From Bacteroidales bacterium (GTDB taxonomy: Bacteria > Bacteroidota > Bacteroidia > Bacteroidales > VadinHA17): DNA of 64,000 nt. A program made the translations under genes and the position numbers. Within the stretch, counting starts at the first letter, position 1. The number at the start of each line of letters is the position of its first letter. This document shows positions 17,440 to 61,500 of the stretch, piece after piece. The notes under the pieces were generated by a model. The model saw only the letters and a list, made by a program, of their open reading frames with translations. It made no database searches and was not told where the DNA came from. The DNA lies in NCBI GenBank assembly GCA_022865305.1, contig JALHSP010000074.1:18413-82412 (forward strand), written 5' to 3'.

Positions 17440-18639
17440 CTAACAGACTTTCCTGATACATTTCAATAATACTTCCAGTACTCTTTGCCGTTCTTCATCA
17501 GTCATGCCGGTGCCGGAAGGAAGACATAATCCATTTTGAAATAACCTTTCGGAGACCCCGCTAAGATAAGTCGGGTATACTGAGAAAACAGGCTGTAGAT
17601 GCATAGGCTTCCATAATGGTCTACTCTCAATATTATTCTCCTCCAACTGCTTCTGCAAATCCTCACGTGTAATTCCTGTTATTTCGGCATCGATAATAAC
17701 AGCAGTTAACCAGTGATTTGAAAAGTATGATTTATCAGGTTCTTCGAGAAATTTTAATCCTTGATATTTTTTCAGGTTTTCATAATAGAAGGAAAAATTT
17801 GATCTTCTTTGTTTTACTCTCTCATCAATAACCTCCATCTGCCCGCATCCAATTCCTGCAAGAACATTGCTCATCCGGTAATTATAACCGATCTGGCTAT
17901 GCTGATAATGCGGTGCTTTGTCCCGTGCCTGTGTCGCCAGAAATCTGGCTTTATCAATCATCTCTTTATCGTCTGAGATCAATGCTCCTCCTCCTGATGT
18001 TGTTATGATTTTATTCCCGTTGAAAGACAACACTCCCATTTTACCGAAAGTTCCAACTTGTTTCCCTTTATACTTACTGCCCAGGGCTTCCGCCGCATCT
18101 TCAATTACAGGTATATCGTATTTATTAGCTATAGCCATAATCCTGTCCATATTAGCTGGCATCCCGTATAAGTGAACAACAATGATTGCCTTGGGTAAGC
18201 GATGAGCGGTGAGAGGTGAGTGGTGAGATTTCCCTTGTGCCCTGCGCTCTGCGCCCTGCGCCCTGCGCCCTTTAATGGCTTCCTCAAGCAAGTCAGGGTC
18301 CATATTCCACGTTCCAGGTTCACTGTCAACCAGTACCGGTGTTGCTCCCAGGTAAACAATCGGATTTATAGTTGCTGAAAAAGTAAAGGAGGAAGCAATA
18401 ACTTCATCTCCAGGTTTGACTCCCAGCAGAATAAGGGCCAGGTGAATAGCCGCCGTTCCGGAGCTTAATGCCACAACATGCTTTATGCCACAATACCTGG
18501 CAATAGCTTCTTCAAAGGCATCTACATTCGCCCCAAGCGGAGCTATCCAGTTGGTGTCGAAAGCGACCTTAATATATTTTTGTTCAGCACCTCCCATATG
18601 CGGGCTTGAAAGGTAGATTCGTTTCTTATTTGTCAACAT
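17440..18639 (-). CDS. DegT/DnrJ/EryC1/StrS family PLP-dependent sugar aminotransferase carrying an in-frame ~25-aa repeat-encoded insertion
   Basis: Family pattern throughout (LSSGTAAIHLAL, IEDAAEALGS, SFNGNKIITTSGGGAL). Residues 124-148, GRRAQGAERRAQGKSHHSPLTAHRL, interrupt the usual ..EEAIK/..KAIIVVHLYG junction. Confidence 0.9.
   Translation of the reverse strand: MLTNKKRIYLSSPHMGGAEQKYIKVAFDTNWIAPLGANVDAFEEAIARYCGIKHVVALSSGTAAIHLALILLGVKPGDEVIASSFTFSATINPIVYLGATPVLVDSEPGTWNMDPDLLEEAIKGRRAQGAERRAQGKSHHSPLTAHRLPKAIIVVHLYGMPANMDRIMAIANKYDIPVIEDAAEALGSKYKGKQVGTFGKMGVLSFNGNKIITTSGGGALISDDKEMIDKARFLATQARDKAPHYQHSQIGYNYRMSNVLAGIGCGQMEVIDERVKQRRSNFSFYYENLKKYQGLKFLEEPDKSYFSNHWLTAVIIDAEITGITREDLQKQLEENNIESRPLWKPMHLQPVFSVYPTYLSGVSERLFQNGLCLPSGTGMTDEERQRVLEVLLKCIRKVC
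18194..18272. repeat. two abutting heptamer arrays inside the DegT coding sequence: (GGTGAGN)x5 then (GCGCCCT)x5
   Basis: Read directly: ggtaagc gatgagc ggtgaga ggtgagt ggtgaga tttccct t gtgccct gcgctct gcgccct gcgccct gcgccct. Confidence 0.85.
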
Positions 18640-18680
18640 TTGTGATAATTTGTTATTTCGGTGAATGCTAGTGCAAAGAG

Positions 18681-18743
18681 GTGAGCGGTGAGAGGTGAGC
18701 GGTGAGCGATGAGCGGTGAGTTATGAGCAATGAGTTTTGAGTC
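18681..18743. repeat. heptamer array (GTGAGCG-type, 9 units), left arm of zipper cassette A
   Basis: gtgagcg gtgagag gtgagcg gtgagcg atgagcg gtgagtt atgagca atgagtt ttgagtc. The core ggtgagcgatgagcg (18701-18715) is the exact reverse complement of 19160-19174. Confidence 0.85.
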
Positions 18744-18758
18744 TATAACAAATAGTAT

Positions 18759-19133
18759 TTAAGAACACCACTTATCAGGATGGTTGATCATGGATATCAG
18801 CATCTTGCGAACTTCATCATATTCATTCATTATTTCATCATGGATTTCATTTGAGATATACTTACAATCTCGTGAATAATCCAACCAGACTTCAGTTTCA
18901 TATTCTTCTCCTAATGAATCAGATAATTTATTTACAAAAGATTTGATATAACGCTTCTTTGCCCATGCTTCTGCAATATTTGATGTTACTGACCTCGACG
19001 AGCGACGAATCTGATCGATCAGAGAATACTTTTCTTCTTTTGGAAAATCTTTTGATATCTCAAATATCTTCATCGCCAGCTTATAAGCTTTCTGATATAC
19101 AATTAAATCCTTGAAACTATTTATCTGACTCAT
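18759..19133 (-). CDS. four-helix-bundle protein (23S rRNA intervening-sequence protein family, PF05635/TIGR02436-like)
   Basis: 124 aa. Family pattern FKDLIVYQKAYKLAMKIFEISKDFPKEEKYSLIDQIRRSSRSVTSNIAEAW. Confidence 0.85.
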   Translation of the reverse strand: MSQINSFKDLIVYQKAYKLAMKIFEISKDFPKEEKYSLIDQIRRSSRSVTSNIAEAWAKKRYIKSFVNKLSDSLGEEYETEVWLDYSRDCKYISNEIHDEIMNEYDEVRKMLISMINHPDKWCS

Positions 19134-19146
19134 AAATTGTAATCTA

Positions 19147-19195
19147 TCTCATTTCTCATCGCTCATCGCTCACCTCTCATCTCTATATTCTCACC
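19147..19195. repeat. heptamer array (TCTCATC/GCTCACC-type, 7 units), right arm of zipper cassette A
   Basis: tctcatt tctcatc gctcatc gctcacc tctcatc tctatat tctcacc. This is the complement flavour of 18681-18743. Confidence 0.85.
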
Positions 19196-23182: not shown

Positions 23183-23245
23183 AGGTATTCAGTATTCAGT
23201 ATTCAGTATTCAGTATTCAGTCATCTAATTACCGATCACGGATTA
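23183..23245. repeat. heptamer array: GGTATTC followed by four perfect AGTATTC units, then attaccg-type units; left side of cassette B
   Basis: ggtattc agtattc agtattc agtattc agtattc agtcatc taattac cgatcac ggattac. Confidence 0.85.
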
Positions 23246-23624
23246 CTGTTCTTAATGCAAAAGGTTGAGGATTTATCAATCATTTTTTGAGGCATTCTTC
23301 CGATGGATTCACATTTATGCAATAACCGCTCAGTCTCTTCTGAATCAATATATTGACACTCTTCTGATACCTCAATCCAATGCTGGGTTTCCATCTGTTC
23401 AGCATCTGCATCTGTCAGCTTTGAAATAAAATGCATCTCGTATCTTCTTTTCCCCAAGCCTCGGCGATTTGCGCACCAATCGATCTTGAAGATCTTCTTA
23501 TCTGGTCAGTTAAGGAATATTTTTCTTCTTTTGGAAAGTTTTTACTCACAAAATATATTGCCTTAGCAACTTCCCGTGAAAGTTTATATACCTCAAGATC
23601 CCGAAAACTTGTCACATACACCAT
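23236..23624 (-). pseudogene. four-helix-bundle (23S rRNA IVS protein family) gene split by a 1-nt frameshift in a G4A4 run
   Basis: ORF 23415-23624 (..KEEKYSLTDQIRRSSRSIGAQIAEAWGKE) continues in another frame as ORF 23236-23457 (GKRRYEMHFISKLTDADAEQMETQHWIE..). The switch lies at ttttcccc, 23447-23454. Confidence 0.8.
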
Positions 23625-23644
23625 TATTACTTTATTTTACAAAT

Positions 23645-23686
23645 AGTACTGATTACCGATTACTGAATACCGATCACTGATTACCC
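23645..23686. repeat. heptamer array (ATTACYG-type, 6 units), right side of cassette B; overlaps the stop codon of the GNAT gene
   Basis: agtactg attaccg attactg aataccg atcactg attaccc. The reverse-complement units cagtaat/cggtatt match the left-arm CAGTATT register at 5-6 of 7 positions. Confidence 0.8.
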
Positions 23687-37553: not shown

Positions 37554-38660
37554 TCAGTATACTATTTTACTGATAATATCTACTATACGTTGAGCTGCTT
37601 TGCCATCCCACATTGGTGGTATTACCCCTCTCTTCCATTCACTATTAAATAGCTTTGTAAGTGCAGGTTTAATACAATCAGGATTAGTGCTAATCAGCTC
37701 ATTTGTCCCTAAAGAAACAGTTTCCGGCCGTTCCGTATTATCTCTCAAGGTGATACATGGTACGCCCATAACTGTAGTTTCCTCTGTTATACCCCCTGAA
37801 TCGGTGATGACAGCTTTTGCGTGTTGTACAAGATAGTTGAATTCAAGGTAGCCGAGCGGCTGGAGAAGGTGTAAGTTGTAAGCAGTGAGTAGTGAGTGGT
37901 GAGATATAAGGTCATTAATTTTTTTAGCTGTCCGCGGGTGAACCGGGAAAATGATAGGAATATTCTGTGATGATTCAATGATAGCTTCCAGTAACGCCTT
38001 TAGCTGTAAGTCGTTATCAACATTATTTGGCCTGTGAAGTGTAATTACGAGGTAATTACCTTCCTGAAGTCCGAATTCTTCCCATATCTCTGGCTTCCGA
38101 AACCTAGTCTGGTTGGCTAGAAGCGTGTCAATCATTACATTGCCGACAAAGTAAATACGTTTCTCAGGGACTCCGGCTTTTCGTAAATTATCATTTGCTG
38201 TTTCACTTGTTGTAAAGAAATAATCGGCTAGACAGTCTGTAACCATCCGGTTGATCTCCTCAGGCATTGTAAGATCAAAAGATCGCAGGCCACCTTCAAC
38301 ATGAGCTACCCTGGTAATCATTTTCTTGGCCACAATTGCACATGCCATAGTAGAGGTCACATCTCCGACAACAATCACCAGGTCAGCAGGATTTAATAAT
38401 AAATACTTTTCATAAGCAATCATGATTGCTGCAGTTTGCTCAGCCTGTGTTCCTCCTCCACAACCCAGGTTGACATCAGGCGAAGGAATGTTGAGTTCTT
38501 TGAAGAAAGCGTTACTCATCTTCTCATCATAATGCTGACCTGTATGAACTAACCTATAAGAAATATCATGTCCTTTCTCCTTCGCTTCATGAATTGCATT
38601 AATTATGGGTGCAATCTTCATGAAGTTTGGTCGTGCACCGGCAATGAGATGGAGTTTCAT
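37554..38660 (-). CDS. wecB: UDP-N-acetylglucosamine 2-epimerase (non-hydrolysing)
   Basis: MKLHLIAGARPNFMKIAPI, HTGQHYD, VVGDVTSTMACA, HVEGGLRSFD, PEEINR, VITDSGGITEETTVMGVPCITLRDNTERPETV. Confidence 0.92.
   Translation of the reverse strand: MKLHLIAGARPNFMKIAPIINAIHEAKEKGHDISYRLVHTGQHYDEKMSNAFFKELNIPSPDVNLGCGGGTQAEQTAAIMIAYEKYLLLNPADLVIVVGDVTSTMACAIVAKKMITRVAHVEGGLRSFDLTMPEEINRMVTDCLADYFFTTSETANDNLRKAGVPEKRIYFVGNVMIDTLLANQTRFRKPEIWEEFGLQEGNYLVITLHRPNNVDNDLQLKALLEAIIESSQNIPIIFPVHPRTAKKINDLISHHSLLTAYNLHLLQPLGYLEFNYLVQHAKAVITDSGGITEETTVMGVPCITLRDNTERPETVSLGTNELISTNPDCIKPALTKLFNSEWKRGVIPPMWDGKAAQRIVDIISKIVY
37871..37905. repeat. heptamer array (GTRAGNN x5) inside the wecB coding sequence
   Basis: gtaagtt gtaagca gtgagta gtgagtg gtgagat encodes ISHHSLLTAYNL on the minus strand. 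Confidence 0.75.
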
Positions 38661-38697: not shown

Positions 38698-38781
38698 GAC
38701 CGAAGACCGAAGATCGATGTATTAGGTTCAACTCCTGTCTTCCGTCTTCCGTCTTCCGTCTTCCGCCTTCAACCTTCCTCA
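38698..38781. repeat. empty zipper hairpin: (GACCGAA)x3, 14-nt loop, (TTCCGTC)x5-7
   Basis: gaccgaa gaccgaa gatcgat | gtattaggttcaac | tcctgtc ttccgtc ttccgtc ttccgtc ttccgcc ttcaacc ttcctca. Six of 7 positions pair per unit. The right arm runs into the stop codon and last 7 codons of 38769-40940. Confidence 0.8.
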
Positions 38782-40940
38782 ACCTGCTTCAACCCGTGAA
38801 TCTGATCGAGAACAGAAAGTGTAAGTCTCGTCATTTCAATATCAGTTTCAAATGGAAGTATAAGGGACTCTTCATTCTTAAGTTTCTTTGATAGTTCATT
38901 AATTAATACTTTATGACCTTTGTCAGCCTGTTTTAGCTTCATCCCCGTCTCATCACAATTAAAGGTTTGAAGCTCAATGAAATCATTGATTACCAGGGAA
39001 CTGCCGTTTGTAAATATTTCAATCCTCTCTTTCTCCATATCTTTTCCACCTATGGAAGTATAGGTCAGAACGCCTATTGATCCATTCTCAAACGCCATTG
39101 TTACTATTACATTATCCTCTGATTGTATGATTTTTCCATCAGTTGGTATATGGGCCGCATATATCTCCCTTACCTTGCCTGATGCCAGGTAAGCAATCAA
39201 ATCTATAAAATGACACACTTCACCTACTATTCTTCCGCCGCCTTCCTCCAGATCCTGTACCCAGATATCAGGAGGGAAATAACCTGCATTTACACGATAG
39301 TTTATAACAACAGGCGTTCCGCTATTCTTAATTACGTGTTTTACCTTCTGGATTAACGGTGAATACCTCCGGTTGAAGCCAACTGTTGCAACCACATGCG
39401 GATTTTCCCGTATTGCTCCTTCAATCATTGACAATTCATCATGGTTCATCGCCAGTGGTTTTTCAACAAGCACATTCTTCCCTGATCTGATTGAATCAGT
39501 AACCAAAACAGCATGAAGATTATGCCGTGTGCCAATAACAATCAGGTCAATGTCAGGATCACTTATTAACTGCCTATAGTCTGTTGAAACATAATTTACT
39601 TTATATTTCTCACTGACTGTTTTTGCAGAGGCAGGGGTTCTCTCGGCAATACCTATTAATTCATATTCTTCCGGCATATTCAATATATTCGACAGATGAT
39701 TTCTTTGAATAAAGCTGCCGACCCCTATAATACCAACTCCTATTTTCCCAGAAGTAATTTTCCGAGGATGTACTTCCATACGGCTTACCGGAACAACCTT
39801 CTCCTCGTGCAAATAATTAAATAAGCACGAAATATTTCCTCCAGGATTTTCAACCAGCGTATTATATGCTTCGGCTGCCTGATCAATATTAAATCTATTT
39901 GATATAAGAGGATCTACCTTCACCTGACCCGTAGCAAGAAGCCTTATAAATTCCATCATATTACGGTTTTCGGTCCAACGGACATAACCGATTGGGTAAT
40001 CTATTCCTTTTAGTTCATATTGATTATCATACCTTCCTGGTCCGTAAGATGTTGACATTACAAAATCAAGTTCCTTCGAATACATTGCCTCGCGCTCAAG
40101 ATTCATTCCAACTGATCCAACAATAACAACCCGTCCTTTTTTCCGGCAGGCTTCCATGGCCTGATTCGCCGGTTCAGAATGTTTTGTTGCAGCATAAATT
40201 ATAACTGCATCAGCACCATAGCCATGAGTTGCATCCTTTATTTTTTGAACAAGGTTCTTGTCATTTGCATCAAAACAATGATCGGCCCCCACTTCTTTCG
40301 CAAGTTCAAGACGCAATGGATTGAGATCTGTGCCAATTACGACCAGACCCCATGTTTTTGCTATCTGAACAGCTATTAGTCCCAGGAGGCCTAATCCGAT
40401 AATTACAATTGTCTCACCAAAAGTTACATTGGCACGCCTTATACCCTGCATCGCTATGGAACCTATAGTCGTAAAACCTGCAGATTCAAAAGAGACTTCA
40501 TCAGGTATTTTAACAGCCAGGTTGACCGGTACAGAAGTAAACTCAGCATGTGCTGCAATACCGGCACCGGCGCACGCAACACGGTCTCCCACATTAAAAT
40601 TTGTCACCAGGTGCCCTTTTGCTATAACAACTCCGGCATTGCTATAACCAACAGGTTTAAATATAACAGCCTGTTCAGCCGGATTTAATTTATTTTTTAT
40701 CGCTTTTATTGCTGAATTGAAACCTTTTTCCTGTATTATCCGGTTTACTTTATCCCACAATAATTTCTTTTCATGCAGTTTTTCGGACAGTGTCACATCC
40801 CCCTTCTTCATGCCCATTGTCTCAGTCCCTGTACTGATAACACTGGTATAGACTGCAACCAGCAACTCATTATCTCCGGGAGTTGGCACAGGTGCATCCA
40901 GCGCATTGAGTCCTTTATTTGTAGCAAAAATTTGTTTCAT
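38769..40940 (-). CDS. bi-domain oxidoreductase: N-terminal MDR/zinc-type alcohol dehydrogenase fused to a Gfo/Idh/MocA NAD(P)-binding oxidoreductase
   Basis: The N-terminal half has GDRVACAG.. and the Rossmann motif IIGLGLLGLIAVQIAK. The C-terminal half has GVGIIGVGSFIQRNHL, LVEKPLA and EVCHFIDL. Confidence 0.85.
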   Translation of the reverse strand: MKQIFATNKGLNALDAPVPTPGDNELLVAVYTSVISTGTETMGMKKGDVTLSEKLHEKKLLWDKVNRIIQEKGFNSAIKAIKNKLNPAEQAVIFKPVGYSNAGVVIAKGHLVTNFNVGDRVACAGAGIAAHAEFTSVPVNLAVKIPDEVSFESAGFTTIGSIAMQGIRRANVTFGETIVIIGLGLLGLIAVQIAKTWGLVVIGTDLNPLRLELAKEVGADHCFDANDKNLVQKIKDATHGYGADAVIIYAATKHSEPANQAMEACRKKGRVVIVGSVGMNLEREAMYSKELDFVMSTSYGPGRYDNQYELKGIDYPIGYVRWTENRNMMEFIRLLATGQVKVDPLISNRFNIDQAAEAYNTLVENPGGNISCLFNYLHEEKVVPVSRMEVHPRKITSGKIGVGIIGVGSFIQRNHLSNILNMPEEYELIGIAERTPASAKTVSEKYKVNYVSTDYRQLISDPDIDLIVIGTRHNLHAVLVTDSIRSGKNVLVEKPLAMNHDELSMIEGAIRENPHVVATVGFNRRYSPLIQKVKHVIKNSGTPVVINYRVNAGYFPPDIWVQDLEEGGGRIVGEVCHFIDLIAYLASGKVREIYAAHIPTDGKIIQSEDNVIVTMAFENGSIGVLTYTSIGGKDMEKERIEIFTNGSSLVINDFIELQTFNCDETGMKLKQADKGHKVLINELSKKLKNEESLILPFETDIEMTRLTLSVLDQIHGLKQVEEG

Positions 40941-54045: not shown

Positions 54046-54087
54046 CTCTAAGATATTGGAAGAGAGGTTAGATTTTCAATTTGTAAT

Positions 54088-54165
54088 AAGACAAAAGTTA
54101 AAAGATAAAAGTATTAATCTTTGAGTCCTTCACTTTTGTCTTGTGAATTTTATCTTTTGTCTTTT
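54088..54165. repeat. empty zipper hairpin (GACAAAA / CTTTTGT flavour) just upstream of the capD-like start codon
   Basis: aagacaaaagttaaaagataaaag | 21-nt loop | cttttgtcttgtgaattttatcttttgtctttt. Perfect sub-stems are aagacaaaag/cttttgtctt and aaaagataaaa/ttttatctttt. Confidence 0.7.
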
Positions 54166-54534
54166 CCGACTCCGGAGGAGCATGCTTCCGCCCCGTCAGT
54201 CCCAACTACTTATTGCTGTAACTAATTATTATTGTGATGCAAAGTGTCTTTAGTCAGGCTTTTGCCAACAATTATATTCGTTACAGTAAACCTGCTCCGG
54301 TCAGACAAATGAACAAACATTCAGGCGGTGAATTTAATGAAAGAAATGTGGGTTATCAAACAGTAAAATGAATAGAGTGTTGAAAAAAATGGTATATCCG
54401 GGATATTTGACTAGCAATAATTGTTAATTCAAATTCTAAATTGTTTTACTGGTAATAATTTTGTCTCCTTTCATAAAAATCCAAAAATTTTTGATGAAAG
54501 TATTGTAAAACCTGATAAAAAGCTCCTGAATCAA

Positions 54535-56688
54535 TTATTTATTAAATATTGTGAAATCAATCCGTCTGTTAAGTCTTCTGTCAGTCGGATAGGTATTCGA
54601 GGCAATCGGTCTGTTTCCGCCATATCCTTTTGCTGTCAGGCGTTTGCTACTGATGCCTCTGTTGATCATATAGTTTACTATCACCTGGGCTCGGGATTGG
54701 GACAGTGACAGGTTATTTGACGAAACTCCCTGGTTATCAGTGTGCACGCCTATCTCAAGTCCTATACCTGGGTATTTATTCATCAGCATCACAACCTGAT
54801 CAAGCATGATATATGCGCGGGTGGTCAAACTGTTGTTGGCATCAAAATATGTGTCAGTCAGAAGGCTATTATTCTTTTCGAGAATATACAATTCCTTTTC
54901 TGCAGGATCTTTGAGTATAAAGATTCGAACCCTGGCATCACTATGCCCGCTTGCTACCATCTCATTATATGCCGGGTAGGTGGCCATCAGGTTCATTTGC
55001 TCGTCAACAATATAGCTCCAGGTACCGGCTTCGGCATCAAATAGTTCCTTCACAGTGTACTTCGCAGGTACATTTCTGAAAAAGGTGCTGTAAAGATTAG
55101 TCTTGGCTCGAGATGATAATAATACCACCTGGAATACTGCCTCCCTGCTGAAATCTGTCTCAGCAGAATAGAGCCCATTAACTTTAACATTCTCAAAATG
55201 CCTGATGTCAGTAAGATTCTGCCTCACAACTGGCCTTCCGGCTATATATGAAGCCCTATCCTGCTCACTTCGGAACACAATCACTTTTTTTGTTACCGCC
55301 CTTTTGACAACATCTACTGTAGTCTGCGACTTTAATGTTAGTCCCAGTCTGACATTATATTCTCCGCTTTCACCAAACGTATGGTTGACTCTCTCTCCAT
55401 ATTCTGTGGTACCATCACCAAAGTTCCAGAAATAGCCTGTAACATTATATCCGGGACAGTATGACTTTAATCCATCAAATTCAACTGCCTCACCGATAAT
55501 AGCATAATCAGGAGAACTAATAAACGGTTGATCATTATCAACGATCTCAATATCATACGTGAGTTTTCGGAAGAAGAGGTTTCCAGTTCTCCTGTCGGTG
55601 ATATCAAGGTTTATGCTGTATCTTCCGGGGCCCGGGAAACAGTGCCTTACATTTGTGCCGTACACCTTTGAATCATCCCCGAAATCCCATTTATACCTTA
55701 GTCTCAGCGTGTCAATCTGTATTGATCCTGTGTCTGAGATAGTAAAACAATACTGGTTTTCTTTCTGAGGCTCGCTTAACCAGACCTGGAGTAGATCTGA
55801 GTTGAACCGGAATATATCTATAGTTTTCCCCCTGTTCGAAGAGAAGTATCCTTCATTCTTATTTGCATGAGTAATAATGCCGAAATCATCGAACTCCGAG
55901 TTTACAGGCGCATCTAGCCTTACTGGCGGATACCATCCAGTGCCTTGCTGCTTCGTTACAAAAATATCCTTCCCTCCTAGTCCCTCGTGACCATCGGATG
56001 AGAAGAAAAACTCACCAGCGTTGTTTATAAAGGGATAAGATTCATTCCCCTTGGTGTTAACGAGTGGACCAAGGTTCACAGGGTCTTCCCAATAACCGTT
56101 TCTCCATTGACTGTAGTAAATATCTGCACCTCCGTAACCATCGGGCCTGTCAGATGCGAAGTACAATCTTTTACCATCGGGAGAGAGACATGGCATGGTA
56201 ATATTATACCACTCATTATTGAACCCCATCTCATGGATCTTTGTCCATTTTTCACCCTCCAGAACTGCCCTGAAAATGCCAAGCTTATTTCTTAATGTAG
56301 AAAGCTGACGGTAATTACCATCAACCTGCAGATTTCTGGAATAGTATATTGTATCACCTCTGCTGCTAAAGGTTACTGGCCCGTCGTTAAAGTGTGTCTT
56401 TAAACTCTTTGAAAACAATCCTGATTTTCGCCATGCAACCTTACCTGTCGTATCAATATAGTTGATCTTAACCTGGCCTCTGTCCTGGGAAGAAGAGTAA
56501 TTTGTCAACGAACCTGACTGACGGTTTGTGCTGAAAACTATTCCGTTCTTATAATAAACAGGACAGAATTCGTCATATTTCTTCGAGCTGAAAGGGGCTT
56601 TTGTCACCGTATATGTCTCTTGCTGCCCTGTAGATAACTGGTTAAGGGTGAAGCTTATCAATATAATTAGTAGCAACTTGAAATTCAT
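54535..56688 (-). CDS. OmpA-family protein with TolB-like beta-propeller repeats and PKD domains
   Basis: ATG at 56688 gives the signal MNFKLLLIILISFTLNQL. The track's extra 23 aa are a translation of the heptamer array. WD40-like PD40 repeats are present (LSPDGKRLYFASDRPDGYGGADIY). Two PKD-like modules are present (WDFGDDS.., WNFGDGT..). The C-terminal OmpA domain reads TDNQG..NLSLSQSRAQ..RRIDF. Confidence 0.85.
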   Translation of the reverse strand: MNFKLLLIILISFTLNQLSTGQQETYTVTKAPFSSKKYDEFCPVYYKNGIVFSTNRQSGSLTNYSSSQDRGQVKINYIDTTGKVAWRKSGLFSKSLKTHFNDGPVTFSSRGDTIYYSRNLQVDGNYRQLSTLRNKLGIFRAVLEGEKWTKIHEMGFNNEWYNITMPCLSPDGKRLYFASDRPDGYGGADIYYSQWRNGYWEDPVNLGPLVNTKGNESYPFINNAGEFFFSSDGHEGLGGKDIFVTKQQGTGWYPPVRLDAPVNSEFDDFGIITHANKNEGYFSSNRGKTIDIFRFNSDLLQVWLSEPQKENQYCFTISDTGSIQIDTLRLRYKWDFGDDSKVYGTNVRHCFPGPGRYSINLDITDRRTGNLFFRKLTYDIEIVDNDQPFISSPDYAIIGEAVEFDGLKSYCPGYNVTGYFWNFGDGTTEYGERVNHTFGESGEYNVRLGLTLKSQTTVDVVKRAVTKKVIVFRSEQDRASYIAGRPVVRQNLTDIRHFENVKVNGLYSAETDFSREAVFQVVLLSSRAKTNLYSTFFRNVPAKYTVKELFDAEAGTWSYIVDEQMNLMATYPAYNEMVASGHSDARVRIFILKDPAEKELYILEKNNSLLTDTYFDANNSLTTRAYIMLDQVVMLMNKYPGIGLEIGVHTDNQGVSSNNLSLSQSRAQVIVNYMINRGISSKRLTAKGYGGNRPIASNTYPTDRRLNRRIDFTIFNK

Positions 56689-56728
56689 GGTTTTCGTTTT
56701 ACTAGATAGAAGTGCCTGGTTATTTAAA

Positions 56729-56878
56729 GTTGGCAGTTGGCAGTTGGCAGTTGGCAATCTTTGTTTCTTGTGTATATTATTTCAGGGGAAAATTTCAGGA
56801 ATTTCTATTATAATCCTGATCTATTACTTAAAATCTAAAATTTAACTTTTTGCCAACTGCATTTTGCCAACTGCAATT
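56729..56878. repeat. empty zipper hairpin: (GTTGGCA)x4, ~94-nt loop, TGCCAAC-type arm
   Basis: Four perfect gttggca units at 56729-56756, and tgccaac tgcattt tgccaac tgcaatt at 56851-56878. Two 10-bp perfect matches gcagttggca/tgccaactgc. Confidence 0.75.
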
Positions 56879-56953
56879 TTTTGCTAAGGTAAGTAATTAA
56901 GTCGCGTTAAGAATCGAAAGTAATGTGCACTGCTTTAATGCTTAATAATCCGC

Positions 56954-57069
56954 CTAGTGCCGCGGAACATATTTCTCAGGATTTTCCACCATATGATTCA
57001 ACATCCTGCCTACTTCTTCCAAATTGTCAATAAGTTCCAGATATTCTTCGTGAGTGATATAGTTACACT
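56954..57069 (-). pseudogene. 3' remnant (~38 codons) of a four-helix-bundle gene, truncated exactly at the left arm of cassette C
   Basis: Own translation gives KCNYITHEEYLELIDNLEEVGRMLNHMVENPEKYVPRH*. This aligns with the C-terminus of the 18759-19133 product (DCKYISNEIHDEIMNEYDEVRKMLISMINHPDKW). Confidence 0.6.
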
Positions 57070-57123
57070 TAGAATGCCTAGAGTGCCTAAAGTGCCTAGA
57101 GTGCCTAAAGTTGATTAAGTTTG
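57070..57123. repeat. 9-mer array (TAGAGTGCC/TAAAGTGCC type), left arm of cassette C
   Basis: tagaatgcc tagagtgcc taaagtgcc tagagtgcc taaagttga ttaagtttg. agtgcctaaagtt (57100-57112) is the exact reverse complement of 57528-57540. Confidence 0.8.
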
Positions 57124-57126
57124 AAG

Positions 57127-57513
57127 TTATTGTAGTTTTGAAGTTTTACCAATCGAGGTAAAAATTGCCAGTAATTCTATTGCTTCGTTCATTACAGGTT
57201 CCGTTTTTTGTGAGTTGATCCAGTTAAGATCAATTATAATTTCCAGCCAATAGATAGTCTCACTGGCTTCGCTTTCACAAATTCTTATTTTATTTATAAA
57301 ATCAGCTTTACTTCTTGCCCGGTTGGCTTCTCTGTAATTTGCACCAACACTTGTTCCTGCCTTTGTGAATTGATTCCTAATTATTTTCCCTTCAGGTGAT
57401 CCTGGTAAAAGAACAGATAGTTTTATAACACTGATAGCAAATTTCTTCGTTCTTCCCTCCAGTTGCCTGGCAAACTCTTTATTATCCATAACTTCAATTT
57501 TAATAACTCCCAA
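57127..57513 (-). CDS. four-helix-bundle protein (23S rRNA intervening-sequence protein family)
   Basis: 128 aa. ..FAISVIKLSVLLPGSPEGKIIRNQFTKAGTSVGANYREANRARSKADFINKIRICESEASETIYWLE.. is the typical family pattern. Confidence 0.85.
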   Translation of the reverse strand: MGVIKIEVMDNKEFARQLEGRTKKFAISVIKLSVLLPGSPEGKIIRNQFTKAGTSVGANYREANRARSKADFINKIRICESEASETIYWLEIIIDLNWINSQKTEPVMNEAIELLAIFTSIGKTSKLQ

Positions 57514-57540
57514 CTTTAGGCATTCCTAACTTTAGGCACT
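57512..57540. repeat. right arm of cassette C (AACTTTAGGCA repeat), abutting the PorP/SprF stop codon
   Basis: aactttaggcattcct aactttaggcact. Confidence 0.75.
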
Positions 57541-58457
57541 TAAAAAATCAAAGGATTCACCACATCCACCTTATACCGGAACTCGTATCTTAGCATTATC
57601 TCATGCGATCCATAGCTATATCTTCCAAGCTTGCCGATATCATAATCGTATGTATAGGCGACTCTCAACTGGTTGTTTATAGCGAACTGAAATAATCCTG
57701 CTACAGACCGGTTACTCCGGTATGATGCTCCCACCCAAAACCTGTCAAATAAGTTAAAATGAGCATTCACATCATATAATAACTTTTCTCCTGGCGAGAA
57801 AGTCACAAGAGTCGACGGAAATAACTTTAGTTTCGGGCTTAAACTAAAGACATAACCCGTATTGAATAAATAATAGTATTGTCCGGGATTAACCTTCAGT
57901 GTATATTTGTTTTTATCAAAATCGAACTTGTAGCCCAGTAATTTTGGTATTGAAAAACCTATAAAATAATTATGATATGAGTAATATGTACCAAAACTAA
58001 AGTCAGGAACAACAAAAACCCGTGAATCGATTAGCTTAAATTCATCACCCGGATCGAGGACAACAAGGTCAGACCAGGCAGTGTTTGTGGTGATTATACC
58101 TGCTCCAAGACCAAGTGAGAGATTCCCATCTCCCATACTGATTTTATAAGAATAATTGGAACTGAATTGAGTTTCTTTTGTGACTCCTAATTTATCATTA
58201 ACAACAACAAGACCTACTCCTAGTTTGGAATCGAGTAAAGGTGCATCTACCGCCAGCGTCATGGTTTCAGGAGCACCAGTGATTCCTATCCATTGCTTAC
58301 GGTAGAAAGCTGCAATATTCAGTGCGCCCCTGTTACCTGCATATGAAGGATTTATCGTAAGAGGATTTAGGACATACTGATTTGAGACAGGAGTTAGCTG
58401 CCCCGAAACGTTCAGAGGAATCAGCAACCAGAAAAAAGCCTTAATTATCCTTTTCAT
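57540..58457 (-). CDS. PorP/SprF family type IX secretion system outer-membrane protein
   Basis: The internal ATG gives the signal MKRIIKAFFWLLIPLNVSGQ. The family opening is LTPVSNQYVLNPLTINPSYAG. A beta-barrel pattern runs to the C-terminal ..VVNPLIF. Located directly downstream of a type-B CTD cargo gene, as is usual. Confidence 0.88.
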   Translation of the reverse strand: MKRIIKAFFWLLIPLNVSGQLTPVSNQYVLNPLTINPSYAGNRGALNIAAFYRKQWIGITGAPETMTLAVDAPLLDSKLGVGLVVVNDKLGVTKETQFSSNYSYKISMGDGNLSLGLGAGIITTNTAWSDLVVLDPGDEFKLIDSRVFVVPDFSFGTYYSYHNYFIGFSIPKLLGYKFDFDKNKYTLKVNPGQYYYLFNTGYVFSLSPKLKLFPSTLVTFSPGEKLLYDVNAHFNLFDRFWVGASYRSNRSVAGLFQFAINNQLRVAYTYDYDIGKLGRYSYGSHEIMLRYEFRYKVDVVNPLIF

Positions 58458-58577
58458 TATCTTTAAATTAATTTTAAAAGTATAAAAGAACCCGCATGCC
58501 GCTGATAATTTGATTATTGTATTTAGCTTTGCTGAGCTTTCAAGCAAGGTTTATCAGCAAAACATGCGGGTCTTATT

Positions 58578-61500
58578 TTATCTTCTTATAACAATATAAC
58601 CACCAATTGCATTGCTGTTTGTCGGTTTCAGAATGAAGAAATAAGTGTCATCAGGAAGAGGATTGTTATTATAGTCAACTCCATCCCATTCGTTTTGATA
58701 ATCTCTGTTCAGGTAAACCTGTGCTCCTCTCCTGTCAAATACCACGAGTTCAGTTTTTCCGAGTGTCTCAATTCCACGTAATACGAAGTAATCATTTTTC
58801 CCATCCATATTAGGGGTAATGAGAGTCGGAATGACCAGGTTATTAACAGTAATTATTATATAGTCTTTTGCCGGAGAACATACTCCATTAGTTACTGTCC
58901 ACAAAAGAATGTTTTCACCTAGTTGAAGTCCGGTTACATATGTTTCTGAAGAATCAGCATCAGAGAATTCAGCGGAACCTGATTCGAGAGACCATATCCC
59001 GGTCTCATGAATATCCAGGTCAGCTGCTTCCATTTTTGTTTCAAACAGATATTCCAATACTCTGTCAGGACCTGCATCAGCGACAGGTTTATTCCAAATC
59101 TCAACTTTTACCGAATCAATATTTTTACATCCATATATGTCAGTTAATGTAACCTTATACATGGTAGTTGTTTCCGGAGAAGCTACCGGATCAGATATAC
59201 CAGGATTATCCAACATTGTTTCCGGATCCCAGAAGAAGGTCCCGGTACCAAGTGCATGAAGCTGGACAGATCCTCCTTCACAGAGGATGGTATCTCTGCC
59301 GGCATCAATCGATGGTAAACTTCTGAATATTACCCTGATTATATCTGTAGATTTGCATGTACTGTTTGATTCAGTCCAGGCAAAGTCATATGTACCAAAC
59401 TGGTCCACCGTGACAGTAGCATCAGGCTGATTCGGATCCGGACTAAAGATAGCATTCCCGGGTCCGCTGGATTTAGTCCATGTGCCTGTACCGGAACCAG
59501 GTGTTGCATTCAGGCTGAAATCAAGGTCGCATTCTTCCCCGCCATTTCCCGCATCTGCTGCCGGTGCTTTAATGAAAATAACATTTGTCGAAGCAATATC
59601 TGAACATGTTCCGTTTACTTCTGTCCATGTGAAGGTATAAGATCCATAAGCTGATACAGTAACTTTAGCATTGGGTGCGTTAGCACTTGGAGTGAATGTT
59701 GCTGTTCCTGATCCTGCGGTCTTGGTCCATGTACCGACTCCGACACTTGGAACTGCATTAAGGAAAAATTCCGGACCACAGTTATTGCCGCCTGTTCCGG
59801 GATTAGCATTTGGTTGCTCGTAAAAGTTAACTGTAACTGCAGCACTTTTTGAACATACCACATTTAATTCTGTCCATGTAAATATATAAGTCCCGTATTC
59901 AGATACTGTAACTGTTGCTGTTGGTGAATTTGCACTTGGTGCGAATTCTGCTGTCCCGGGTCCGCTGGTCTTTGTCCAGGTTCCTGTACCAATGTTTAGA
60001 ACCGCACTGAATTTGAAGTTCAGATCGCACTCGTTGCCTCCGGTTCCGGGATTAACTACAGGCTGTCTGTAGAAGTTGACTGTAATTGATGAACTGCTTG
60101 AACAGGTTACATTGACTTCAGTCCAGGTAAAGGTATATGTCCCATATGCTGAAACTGTAACCGTTGCAGTTGGGCTGTTAGCATTTGGTGTGAACGTTGC
60201 AGTGCCCGGTCCGGCAGTTTTAGTCCATGTACCGACTCCAATACTAGGCACTGCATTAAAGATGACTGTCAGATCACACTCATCTCCTCCTTTACCGGCA
60301 TTTGCCAATGGTACTGCATTGACAGTCACAACAGCAGTACCTGTTTGTGTCTGTGAACAACCTGTGGTACTTGCATCCCGGACATTTACCAGTGCATAAG
60401 TAAATATTCCTGAGATACCTGTCGGAACTGGCAATGTAACACTGTTACCTACTGTTGTTGTGATGGTCTGGTTACTGCCATTATTGATCTTATAAGTGAA
60501 TGTATAAGGTGCTGTGCCTGATGCTCCCGTGAAAGCTATATTTGGAGAGGCTGCATCTTTACATACTGTCGTGGTTCCGCTTATGGTAGCCGTTGGCAAT
60601 GGATTAACCGTTATAGTAGCGCTGCCTCCCTGTAGCTGTGAACAGCCTGAAGTACTTCCGTCCCGGACACTTACCAATGTATAAATAAATGTTCCTGCAG
60701 TACCTGTAGATACTGCTACAGTAACACTATTACCACTTGTTGTTGTAACGGTCTGATTACTGCCACTATTGATCTGATAAGTAAAGGTATAAGGTGCTGT
60801 ACCTGATGCTCCCGTGAAAGTAATATTCGGAGAAGCTGCATCTTTGCATACCACTGTGGTTCCGCTGATTGATGCAGTTGGTAATGGATTAACAGTAACA
60901 ATTGCACTGCCTGTTTGTGCCTGCGAACAGGTTGTAATACTTGCATCCCTGACACTTACAAGTGAATATGTAAATGTACCTGCTGTACCGGTGGGTACTG
61001 ATACAGTAACACTGTTACCTGATGTTGTTGTAACTGTCTGGTTGCTTCCACTGTTAATGGTATAGGTGAAAGTATAAGGTGCTGTACCATTTGCTCCTGT
61101 GAAAGTAATATTTGGTGAAGCTACATCTTTACATATCACTGTCGTTCCACTTATCGTCGCTGTTGGTAATGGATTGACTGTTATTGTAGCACTGCCACCC
61201 TGTATCTGCGAGCATGCCGTGGTGCTTCCATCACGAACGCTTACCAGCGCATATGTAAATATTCCAACTGTACCTGTGGGTGCCGGAACCGTCACACTAT
61301 TGCCTGAGGTTGTAGTAACAGTCTGATTGCTTCCGCTATTTATTGTGTAAGTAAAGGTATAGGGTGCTGTACCATTTGCTCCGGTGAATGTAACATTCGG
61401 CGAGGCTGCATCTTTACATACTGCTGTTGTTCCGCTTATGGTTGCTGTTGGTAATGTATTAACTGTTACTACTGCACTACCTGTTTGTGTCTGTGAACAA

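Follow-up and report, generated by a model that had tools for sequence, protein, structure and literature searches.

What assembled the ~800-bp spacer that leads from a PorP/SprF gene to an OmpA-like gene in a Bacteroidales genome, and do the repeats that fill it act as DNA or as RNA? The spacer lies in a 64,000-nucleotide (nt) stretch of contig JALHSP010000074.1 (assembly GCA_022865305.1), hereafter the window, by which we mean the whole stretch of DNA that was analysed. It holds an intact gene of the PF05635 / TIGR02436 four-helix-bundle (4HB) family between inverted arrays of 9-mers (element A), followed by the tail of a second 4HB gene and a gene-less heptamer hairpin, which we read as the remains of a second element (element B). 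The cassettes, the remnant, the hairpin and both flanking genes all lie on the minus strand. An earlier note, made from the sequence alone, had distinguished three elements here, an empty repeat hairpin, a truncated 4HB gene and an intact 4HB cassette, and all three were found where it had placed them, with arm pairing above chance.

Taken as a whole, the locus is best explained by intervening-sequence-type elements, of the kind known from ribosomal RNA (rRNA), sitting in messenger RNA (mRNA) spacers: two such elements in tandem, with arms that would work at the RNA level, and which decay by deletion. We give this reading a probability of roughly 0.6.

An intact element and the relic of a second one

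Element A begins where PorP ends. Its upstream (5') arm (57508..57540, minus strand), built of AAGTGCCTAAAGT-type units, starts at the PorP stop codon, while its downstream (3') arm (57070..57111, minus strand) reads (GGCACTYTA)x4.7 on the transcribed strand, has counterparts in at least 80 related cassettes and abuts the remnant with its last unit. Described as repeats, the two arms comprise (TAGAGTGCC)x4.7 at 57070-57111 and a 16-nt unit present 1.9 times at 57508-57538. Inside these longer, imperfect arms, positions 57100-57112 and 57528-57540 are exact 13-nt complements, just as the earlier note had proposed. When the cassette is folded as a 491-nt RNA, the arms pair around the open reading frame (ORF) and its ATG in both the minimum-free-energy and the centroid structures (-120.5 kcal/mol, z = -3.5).

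The enclosed gene (57127..57489, minus strand) was already recognised as intact and as lying between 9-mer arrays, and this stands, whereas its length has to be revised. The ORF 57127..57513 gives 128 amino acids (aa) when read from a TTG, but all orthologues open with MDNKEF or MENKEF, which places the true start at the ATG at 57489 and leaves a protein of 120 aa. Orthologues found at the equivalent site are 66-78% identical to it. It matches PF05635 (68.7 bits, cutoff 33.8, E = 6e-19) and TIGR02436 (90 bits, cutoff 24, E = 1e-25), and its residues 11-118 align on residues 12-119 of a solved four-helix-bundle member of the family, PDB 2RLD (E = 4.7e-21). Profiles of defence systems (PADLOC) matched neither 4HB protein of the window, and the 4HB protein of the related locus L049 gave one chance-level match (E = 0.002).

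The second 4HB gene survives as its last 38 codons and stop (56954..57070, minus strand), translated from 57070 to 56957 as KCNYITHEEYLELIDNLEEVGRMLNHMVENPEKYVPRH, then stop. Taken alone, this fragment has PF05635 as its top match, at positions 81-105 of 106 and with E = 0.006, its 17.2 bits being below the threshold of 33.8; it likewise reaches the end of TIGR02436 (positions 77-107 of 109, E = 0.006). A homologue search with the 38-aa remnant, padded with four array-encoded residues, gave two close relatives on short metagenome contigs (P0001, 81% identity; P0002, 65%), both with a precomputed PF05635 annotation. At locus L049 an intact 124-aa protein shares 32 of the 38 residues (84%) over its positions 87-124 (E = 4e-24). 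The remnant belongs to the PF05635 / TIGR02436 four-helix-bundle family, and its description as a C-terminal 4HB fragment is borne out by the alignment to the profile ends and by the match at L049. A full-length homologue and a significant C-terminal similarity, on which the earlier note had made its reading depend, both exist.

The L049 gene also shows which arms such a cassette naturally carries. It is flanked upstream by GTTGGCA arrays and downstream by TGCCAAC arrays, the latter standing immediately before the OmpA-like start, and these heptamers are therefore the native arms of the remnant. A further full-length copy of this type, at L003, is frameshifted by a 17-nt palindromic insert and is followed by TGCCAAC arrays; the insert (CCCGAGTACTCGGGG, L003 110-135) resembles a very small mobile palindrome.

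Between the remnant and the OmpA-like gene, Tandem Repeats Finder and a repeat finder detected the heptamer arrays (AGTTGGC)x4.1 at 56728-56756 and (TTTTGCCAACTGCA)x2.3 at 56848-56879. They form 32-nt inverted arms that are 78% complementary and lie 92 nt apart (94 nt between the heptamer cores). The 5' arm of the hairpin is an (TGCAGTTGGCAAAA)x2 array (56850..56881, minus strand), which the RNA fold pairs with the 3' arm, a (TGCCAAC)x4 array (56726..56757, minus strand) situated ~40 nt upstream of the OmpA-like start. Folded as minus-strand RNA, the transcribed sense, the hairpin reaches -44.1 kcal/mol (z = -5.3), a stability that none of 200 shuffled sequences equals. The AT-rich loop of 92 nt (56758..56849, minus strand) has no Rfam match and contains no credible ORF and no detectable relic of a 4HB start or end, in contrast to the internally deleted cassette of locus L015 discussed below.

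Arrays, spacing and ORF-less loop thus agree with what had been noted of this (GTTGGCA)x4 / TGCCAAC structure. The accompanying idea of an "empty zipper", a separate cassette without a gene, did not hold. Across 1.6 Mb of related DNA, GTTGGCA and TGCCAAC arrays are almost confined to the remnant-type gene and its spacer, and a TGCCAAC array is also found directly upstream of the OmpA-like orthologue in L002, L003, L049 and L050. Furthermore, the orthologous junction L002 displays an identical order, namely an N-truncated gene, GTTGGCA-type arrays, a loop of similar length (~90 nt) at the equivalent place, TGCCAAC-type arrays and the OmpA-like start. The arrays are the remnant cassette's own arm repeats, (TGCCAAC)x4 being its native downstream-arm repeat, and the hairpin is therefore not an independent empty cassette.

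The same array explains an anomaly of the downstream flank. The OmpA-like gene (54535..56688, minus strand) encodes 717 aa from the ATG at 56688, with Pfam matches to PD40, PKD and OmpA domains; the gene call at L001 also has 717 aa, and ~45 orthologues align from residue 1, which places the start at this ATG. The MPTANCQLPT extension of the ORF is hence a translated TGCCAAC array, as had been suspected. For genome annotation, array-encoded N-terminal extensions of neighbouring genes count as artefacts, and "empty" repeat hairpins and short 4HB fragments as decay products of such elements. The upstream flank (57540..58547, minus strand) is a PorP/SprF type IX secretion membrane protein gene (Pfam PF11751, E = 8e-73).

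Vertical inheritance of the intact element and deletion in its neighbour

Scanned with the OmpA-like protein (45-67% identity), genomes of uncultured Bacteroidales yielded ~45 orthologous loci that run from PorP to the OmpA-like gene, and in most of these the spacer measures 60-200 nt and has no 4HB gene. The orthologue of the intact gene is present in the spacers of L013, L022, L039 and L045, where its upstream 9-mer arm begins at the PorP stop, like in the window. The cassette arm likewise starts at the PorP stop on the metagenome contigs L088, L089 and L109, bringing the number of other species or contigs with this arrangement to at least seven. In addition, the 4HB protein and PorP have diverged in step in six species pairs (identities of 66/70, 78/78, 74/70, 63/66, 61/61 and 70/68%, 4HB/PorP), which indicates vertical co-inheritance and purifying selection. 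With the cassette at the PorP stop in at least seven others and an identity following that of PorP, element A is therefore an older, vertically inherited resident of the spacer and not a recent insert.

This bears directly on the boundary at 57070. The homology of the remnant begins 1-3 nt from the last unit of the 9-mer array, so that the adjacency described in the earlier note is real, its "exactly" holding only to that precision. The note had gone further and taken the truncation as the best evidence that one cassette inserts into another, a claim that the ancestral position of the intact cassette at the PorP stop and its PorP-like divergence do not bear out. The missing N-terminal 86 codons and GTTGGCA upstream arm of element B are not on the far side of the intact cassette, where the PorP stop abuts the arm. 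As element A is ancestral and the 5' part of the remnant does not lie beyond it, the junction at 57070 is therefore a deletion and not an insertion of A into B. The deletion took the upstream arm of B and ~86 codons, joining codon 87 of B to the end of the downstream arm of A. That its endpoint falls at an arm boundary may reflect a rearrangement promoted by the arm.

The rival account, in which a 4HB gene was there first and was severed at the arm boundary when the 9-mer cassette recently inserted into it or recombined with it, would give a ready explanation for the 1-3 nt that separate the remnant from the array. It could also invoke the occurrence of cassettes of this subfamily in dozens of unrelated contexts, so that they must be able to move, and the stacking of several cassettes in one spacer at L049. 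However, it has to face an intact cassette at the identical position in at least seven other species or contigs, with a divergence matching that of PorP, and the absence of the truncated gene's N-terminal half and upstream arm beyond the cassette. It meets a further difficulty at L002, where a remnant-type gene has been truncated independently, by a different and shorter N-terminal loss, with no 9-mer array adjoining it. We consider recent insertion very improbable.

The history that we favour would run as follows. Element A, with its 9-mer arms and intact gene, would have stood right after the PorP stop since before these Bacteroidales species diverged. Element B, with GTTGGCA/TGCCAAC arms, would once have followed A and preceded the OmpA-like gene, a place in which L049 still has it intact. 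After a deletion in the lineage of the window, the 38-codon tail and a gene-less hairpin made from the arm repeats of B would be what remains.

In a broader sense the earlier note was right that genes and arms form discrete units that turn over, as the ~45 spacers present them in intact, gutted, internally deleted and absent states. At L042 the middle of the gene has been replaced, at the equivalent site, by an unrelated segment of ~190 nt, and at L015 an internally deleted cassette retains both arms together with the first 5 and the last ~7 codons. In 4HB genes of the intact-cassette subfamily, unrelated inserts of 190-240 nt have taken the place of the central part at both L042 (9730-9915) and L049 (9106-9345). 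The former has terminal inverted repeats (GCCGTCAACTTAAG / CTTAGGTTGACGG), and neither insert matches Rfam.

Inverted arms across the family and their possible role

The architecture of the two elements is not a peculiarity of this spacer. Among the ~100 PF05635 family members examined, from Bacteroidales, cyanobacterial plasmids and an Azospirillum 23S rRNA intervening sequence, inverted tandem-repeat arms are found with few exceptions. Every 4HB gene in the window and at the genome loci is framed by arrays of complementary units, be they GTGAG-type, TCCAGGT, GTTTCGC, GTGCCGT or others. The window itself has a second complete cassette (18680..19184, minus strand), whose 4HB gene (18759..19133) lies between (G/A)TGAGnn heptamer arrays at 18680-18742 and 19147-19184, a unit family that also flanks relatives at L022 and L174. 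Its subfamily counts 5562 homologues, and the best 120 of these 5562 are all at least 78% identical. A third cassette (23185..23685, minus strand) contains a frameshifted 4HB pseudogene (ORFs 23415..23624 and 23236..23457), again between heptamer arrays.

A scan of metagenome loci, based on alignment of the intact-cassette subfamily, with other subfamilies resting on fewer cases, yielded 80 loci at 61-80% identity and in many different contexts. Nearly all of them have sense AGTGnnCTAA-type units upstream of the gene and the complement downstream, an arrangement carried by ~85 metagenomic genes of this subfamily, with motif densities per 150 nt of 2.9 in the upstream and 2.4 in the downstream flank, against backgrounds of 0.07 and 0.05. 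The two arms of a given cassette belong together: 9-mers common to an upstream arm and the reverse complement of a downstream arm averaged 9.75 within a cassette vs 3.86 with other cassettes (permutation p < 1e-4). Stem alignment scores of at least 40 were reached by 44 of the 80 cassettes, vs 0/80 for shuffled arms and 4/80 when arms were compared in direct orientation, with a median stem of 32 bp. Furthermore, the units are specific to each subfamily and conserved between species: 9-mers for the intact-cassette type, (G/A)TGAGnn for the 18759..19133 type and GTTGGCA for the remnant type.

Comparison of close relatives indicates that the arms evolve faster than the genes. At L084 and L085 the genes are identical over 360/360 nt and so are the outer flanks, while the upstream arms (2390-2500) are completely rearranged, a difference that points to arm hypervariability or arm exchange and that could also be an assembly effect. 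The P0099 protein, followed across many samples, occupied one locus throughout, and one shorter downstream array amid gapped scaffolds gives a weak sign of copy-number change, for which assembly may again be responsible.

Beyond the Bacteroidota, we examined a plasmid-borne sample of 14 4HB genes, 13 from Cyanobacteria and one from Azospirillum. Nearly all have flanking tandem heptamers, and for 9 of the 14 none of 200 shuffles attains the complementarity seen between the arrays on the two sides of the gene. Among these nine, the Azospirillum gene (L179 1148-1612, plasmid AZO_p2 of Azospirillum lipoferum 4B) is a PF05635-type ORF inside a 23S rRNA gene (Rfam LSU, 2139 bits), between (GAGGACG)x3.9 and (GTCTTCT)x4.1 arms. 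This is a genuine intervening sequence of 23S rRNA, and its inverted tandem heptamers follow the design of the window cassettes. Two of the cyanobacterial genes, on plasmids of Pseudanabaena galeata (L185) and Anabaena sp. 90 (L187), stand between cas6 and cas4; the arrays of the latter are complementary (GGTGACA/TGTCACC), those of the former long and direct, with (AAAGCTA)x16 upstream and (AAAGCCA)x10 downstream. PF05635 genes have been noted within cas operons with no mention of arms (PMC3936711), and the cas6-4HB-cas4 examples examined here also carry arrays.

Two further regularities depend on the strand. Cassettes share the orientation of the gene upstream in 54 of 62 cases and that of the gene downstream in 57 of 67. 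The G-rich arm lies on the 5' side of the ORF in 71 of 77 cassettes of the intact-cassette subfamily and in all 24 from other subfamilies, which represent three phyla and at least 10 unit families. Co-orientation and arm polarity favour a role at the RNA level, or at least one oriented by transcription. In rRNA, the complementary borders of intervening sequences form a stem that is cut by RNase III, and that of Coxiella combines an ORF of the PF05635 family with a 28-bp terminal stem, RNase III cleavage and, immediately before the ORF, tandem GACAGAT heptamers that number two or three depending on the strain (PMC4990558). By analogy with such sequences, and with the Avd protein of diversity-generating retroelements, we infer transcription of the window elements, in vivo pairing of their arms, cleavage by RNase III and binding of the RNA by the 4HB protein.

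The mechanism would be as follows. Spacer elements would be co-transcribed with the host operon, and their arms would pair in the RNA like those of rRNA intervening sequences, producing a double-stranded stem that RNase III could cut, thereby uncoupling the element from its neighbours. Cleavage would let an element sit between genes, or in rRNA, at little cost to the host. The stem may also gate translation of the 4HB gene, whose ATG would lie at its base. The 4HB protein, presumably a pentamer, would probably bind the stem RNA, as suggested by its homology with Avd, a pentameric and positively charged barrel that binds RNA stem-loops (10.1101/2023.10.23.563531). Arrays would change fast by slippage or recombination and yet stay complementary, and whole elements would be lost by deletion.

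Several observations weigh against this reading. Mismatches in the 80 predicted stems comprise 73 G·U and 85 A·C pairs, that is no G·U excess, so complementarity could be kept at the DNA level. Arrays are direct instead of inverted at L175 and L185, and pairing is weak at L177, L184 and L186. The extra GTTGGCA array and loop between gene and TGCCAAC array occur in the window and at L002 but not at L049 and L003, and the proposed deletion history leaves them unaccounted for. Finally, the deletion endpoint at the arm boundary is a single observation and possibly a coincidence.

Another explanation, modelled on the REP sequences around RAYT genes and the attC sites of integrons, would make the arms recombination or mobilisation sites in DNA and the 4HB protein a sequence-specific DNA-binding factor for its own repeat, with RNA pairing incidental. 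Such an explanation agrees with repeat units that are specific to each protein subfamily across species, with one cassette type occurring in many contexts, with the rearranged arm beside a 100% identical gene at L084/L085, with equally frequent G·T and A·C mismatches, and with arm-like arrays located within neighbouring coding genes. The 4HB protein has, however, no nuclease or recombinase fold or motif, its matches being PF05635 and the Avd-like family alone; no target-site duplications were seen, and the cassette has stayed immobile at the PorP site across species splits. G-rich-arm polarity and co-orientation are strand-specific, and in rRNA intervening sequences such arms demonstrably act as RNA (PMC4990558). 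DNA-level action thus appears unlikely to us, albeit the most serious competitor of RNA-level arms.

We judge still less probable that the arrays are functionless, slippage-prone repeats that 4HB genes tolerate or attract, their complementarity arising passively through quasi-palindrome template switching. Heptamers are abundant in some Bacteroidetes and Cyanobacteria, where no role has been agreed upon (PMC4679880), their copy number is variable, the window has gene-less and in-gene arrays, and the missing G·U bias would also be expected of passive repeats. Against this, the motif density beside the gene is 40-fold over background, a protein subfamily keeps its unit family down to 61-80% protein identity and also where the genomic contexts are unrelated, and L015 keeps its arms after the loss of its gene. 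Polarity holds throughout three phyla and at least 10 unit families, and the identical design recurs within an rRNA gene, where a non-pairing insert would harm.

Arrays of the same kind were also observed outside complete cassettes. At L049 (7490-7775) a gene-less GTTGGCA...TGCCAAC hairpin lies right after the PorP stop, its ~190-nt loop containing nested inverted arrays of CTCGGCAC and AACCAGT types. The window has two more gene-less inverted array pairs in intergenic positions: AAGACAAAAG.. with ..CTTTTGTCTT at 54085-54170, and CGAAGAC x2 with GTCTTCC x5 at 38698-38794, the second of which reaches into the 3' end of gene 38769..40940. Within coding sequence, adjacent in-frame (GGTGAGC)x4.9 and (GCCCTGC)x4.7 arrays (18194-18271) in a DegT-like aminotransferase gene (17440..18639, minus strand) encode GRRAQGAERRAQGKSHHSPLTAHRLP, the GGTGAGC unit matching the nearby arm of the 18680-19184 cassette in sequence and orientation. 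Another arm-like unit, in-frame (AGTGAGT)x2.9 at 37884-37903, encodes ..ISHHSLLTAY.. in a UDP-GlcNAc 2-epimerase gene (37554..38660, minus strand). Upstream of PorP, the region 60309-64000 is occupied by a type IX secretion adhesin-like gene (1804+ aa) consisting mostly of 285-nt (95-aa) tandem repeats at 78-79% identity, which is usual for such proteins.

Relation to known elements and meaning for the family

The closest known counterparts are the ORF-bearing 23S rRNA intervening sequences of Leptospira, Coxiella, Brucella and Xanthomonas type. Their "S23p" ORF belongs to PF05635 too, their size of ~430-490 nt is that of the window cassettes, and they likewise have complementary termini forming a stem with the ORF in its loop, with variable heptamers upstream of the ORF in Coxiella (PMC4990558). 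By contrast, the elements of the window lie in operon-like spacers between protein genes, not in helices 9, 25 or 45, stand two in tandem, and have as arms longer, subfamily-specific arrays of 7-9-nt units. An rRNA intervening sequence in the proper sense was accordingly rejected on location, although the stem-enclosed ORF fits: no rRNA match was found within 56400-57800, the flanks are the PorP and OmpA-like coding genes, and the junction as a whole has no match in Rfam.

Avd, the accessory variability determinant of diversity-generating retroelements and a homologue with a four-helix-bundle fold, binds structured RNA beside a pairing of distal sequences (10.1101/2023.10.23.563531), and the window proteins match bAvd (PF22296) and DivGenRetAVD weakly. 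A diversity-generating retroelement was nevertheless rejected, as the DivGenRetAVD scores are 13.6-33 bits for a cutoff of 80 and the junction is bordered by PorP and the OmpA-like gene. Neither a reverse transcriptase nor a template or variable repeat lies beside the 4HB genes of the window, the rest of which was not screened for reverse transcriptase.

Two other systems show a superficial likeness. In REP/RAYT systems (REPINs) a small gene is flanked by inverted short repeats specific to its subfamily, and gene-less repeat hairpins occur elsewhere, as with the elements described here. RAYT is an HUH/Y1 transposase, and REPs are single palindromic units in hundreds of dispersed copies, not tandem arrays. 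Unlike REPs, GTTGGCA arrays are not dispersed, and the 4HB protein has no catalytic fold; the family matches of the window gene are PF05635, bAvd and TIGR02436, with none to an HUH/Y1 (IS200/IS605-like) transposase, and this candidate was set aside. Integron cassettes similarly consist of a short ORF, mostly without a promoter, and an associated imperfect inverted repeat, and occur in tandem, co-oriented with surrounding genes. They have one attC, which follows the ORF on its 3' side and on which the IntI integrase acts at an attI platform. The architecture of the window elements, with arms of tandem arrays on both sides of the ORF, is unlike this, and the type was rejected on that ground; no integrase context is evident at the junction, the window not having been screened for an integron integrase. 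The heptamer repeats of Cyanobacteria, Beggiatoaceae and Bacteroidetes resemble the window arrays in being tandem, intergenic, often directly upstream of start codons and variable in copy number, and in belonging to the same phyla, but those published are direct and have been connected neither with PF05635 genes nor with paired inverted arrays (PMC4679880). Within the full-text literature, to which access was partial, we found no account of PF05635 genes with inverted tandem-array arms, and we provisionally regard this architecture as an undescribed feature of the whole family.

Where bacterial rRNA intervening sequences and their conserved "S23p" ORF come from, and what they do, has been debated since the early 1990s. 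The junction and its relatives bear on this question, as well as on the meaning of the abundant heptamer repeats of Cyanobacteria and some Bacteroidota, since one ORF family and one inverted-array design recur in three settings, namely spacers of mRNA, plasmids and a genuine intervening sequence of rRNA. Subfamily-specific units, fixed strand polarity and long vertical inheritance under purifying selection at the PorP site suggest that this design is under constraint.

As a tentative extension, which we hold to be possible but well short of probable, PF05635 genes may be the cargo of one widespread and undescribed class of elements, defined by self-complementary tandem-repeat arms whose unit co-evolves with the protein. 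If so, this class would span Bacteroidota operons, cyanobacterial plasmids and cas operons, and proteobacterial 23S rRNA, and a pentameric Avd-like protein would recognise its own zipped repeat RNA (or DNA) and help to maintain or spread the arms. The rRNA intervening sequences would then be a special case, namely such elements landed in rRNA, and their arms and relics would make up some of the heptamer repeats that have so far lacked an explanation in Cyanobacteria and Bacteroidota.

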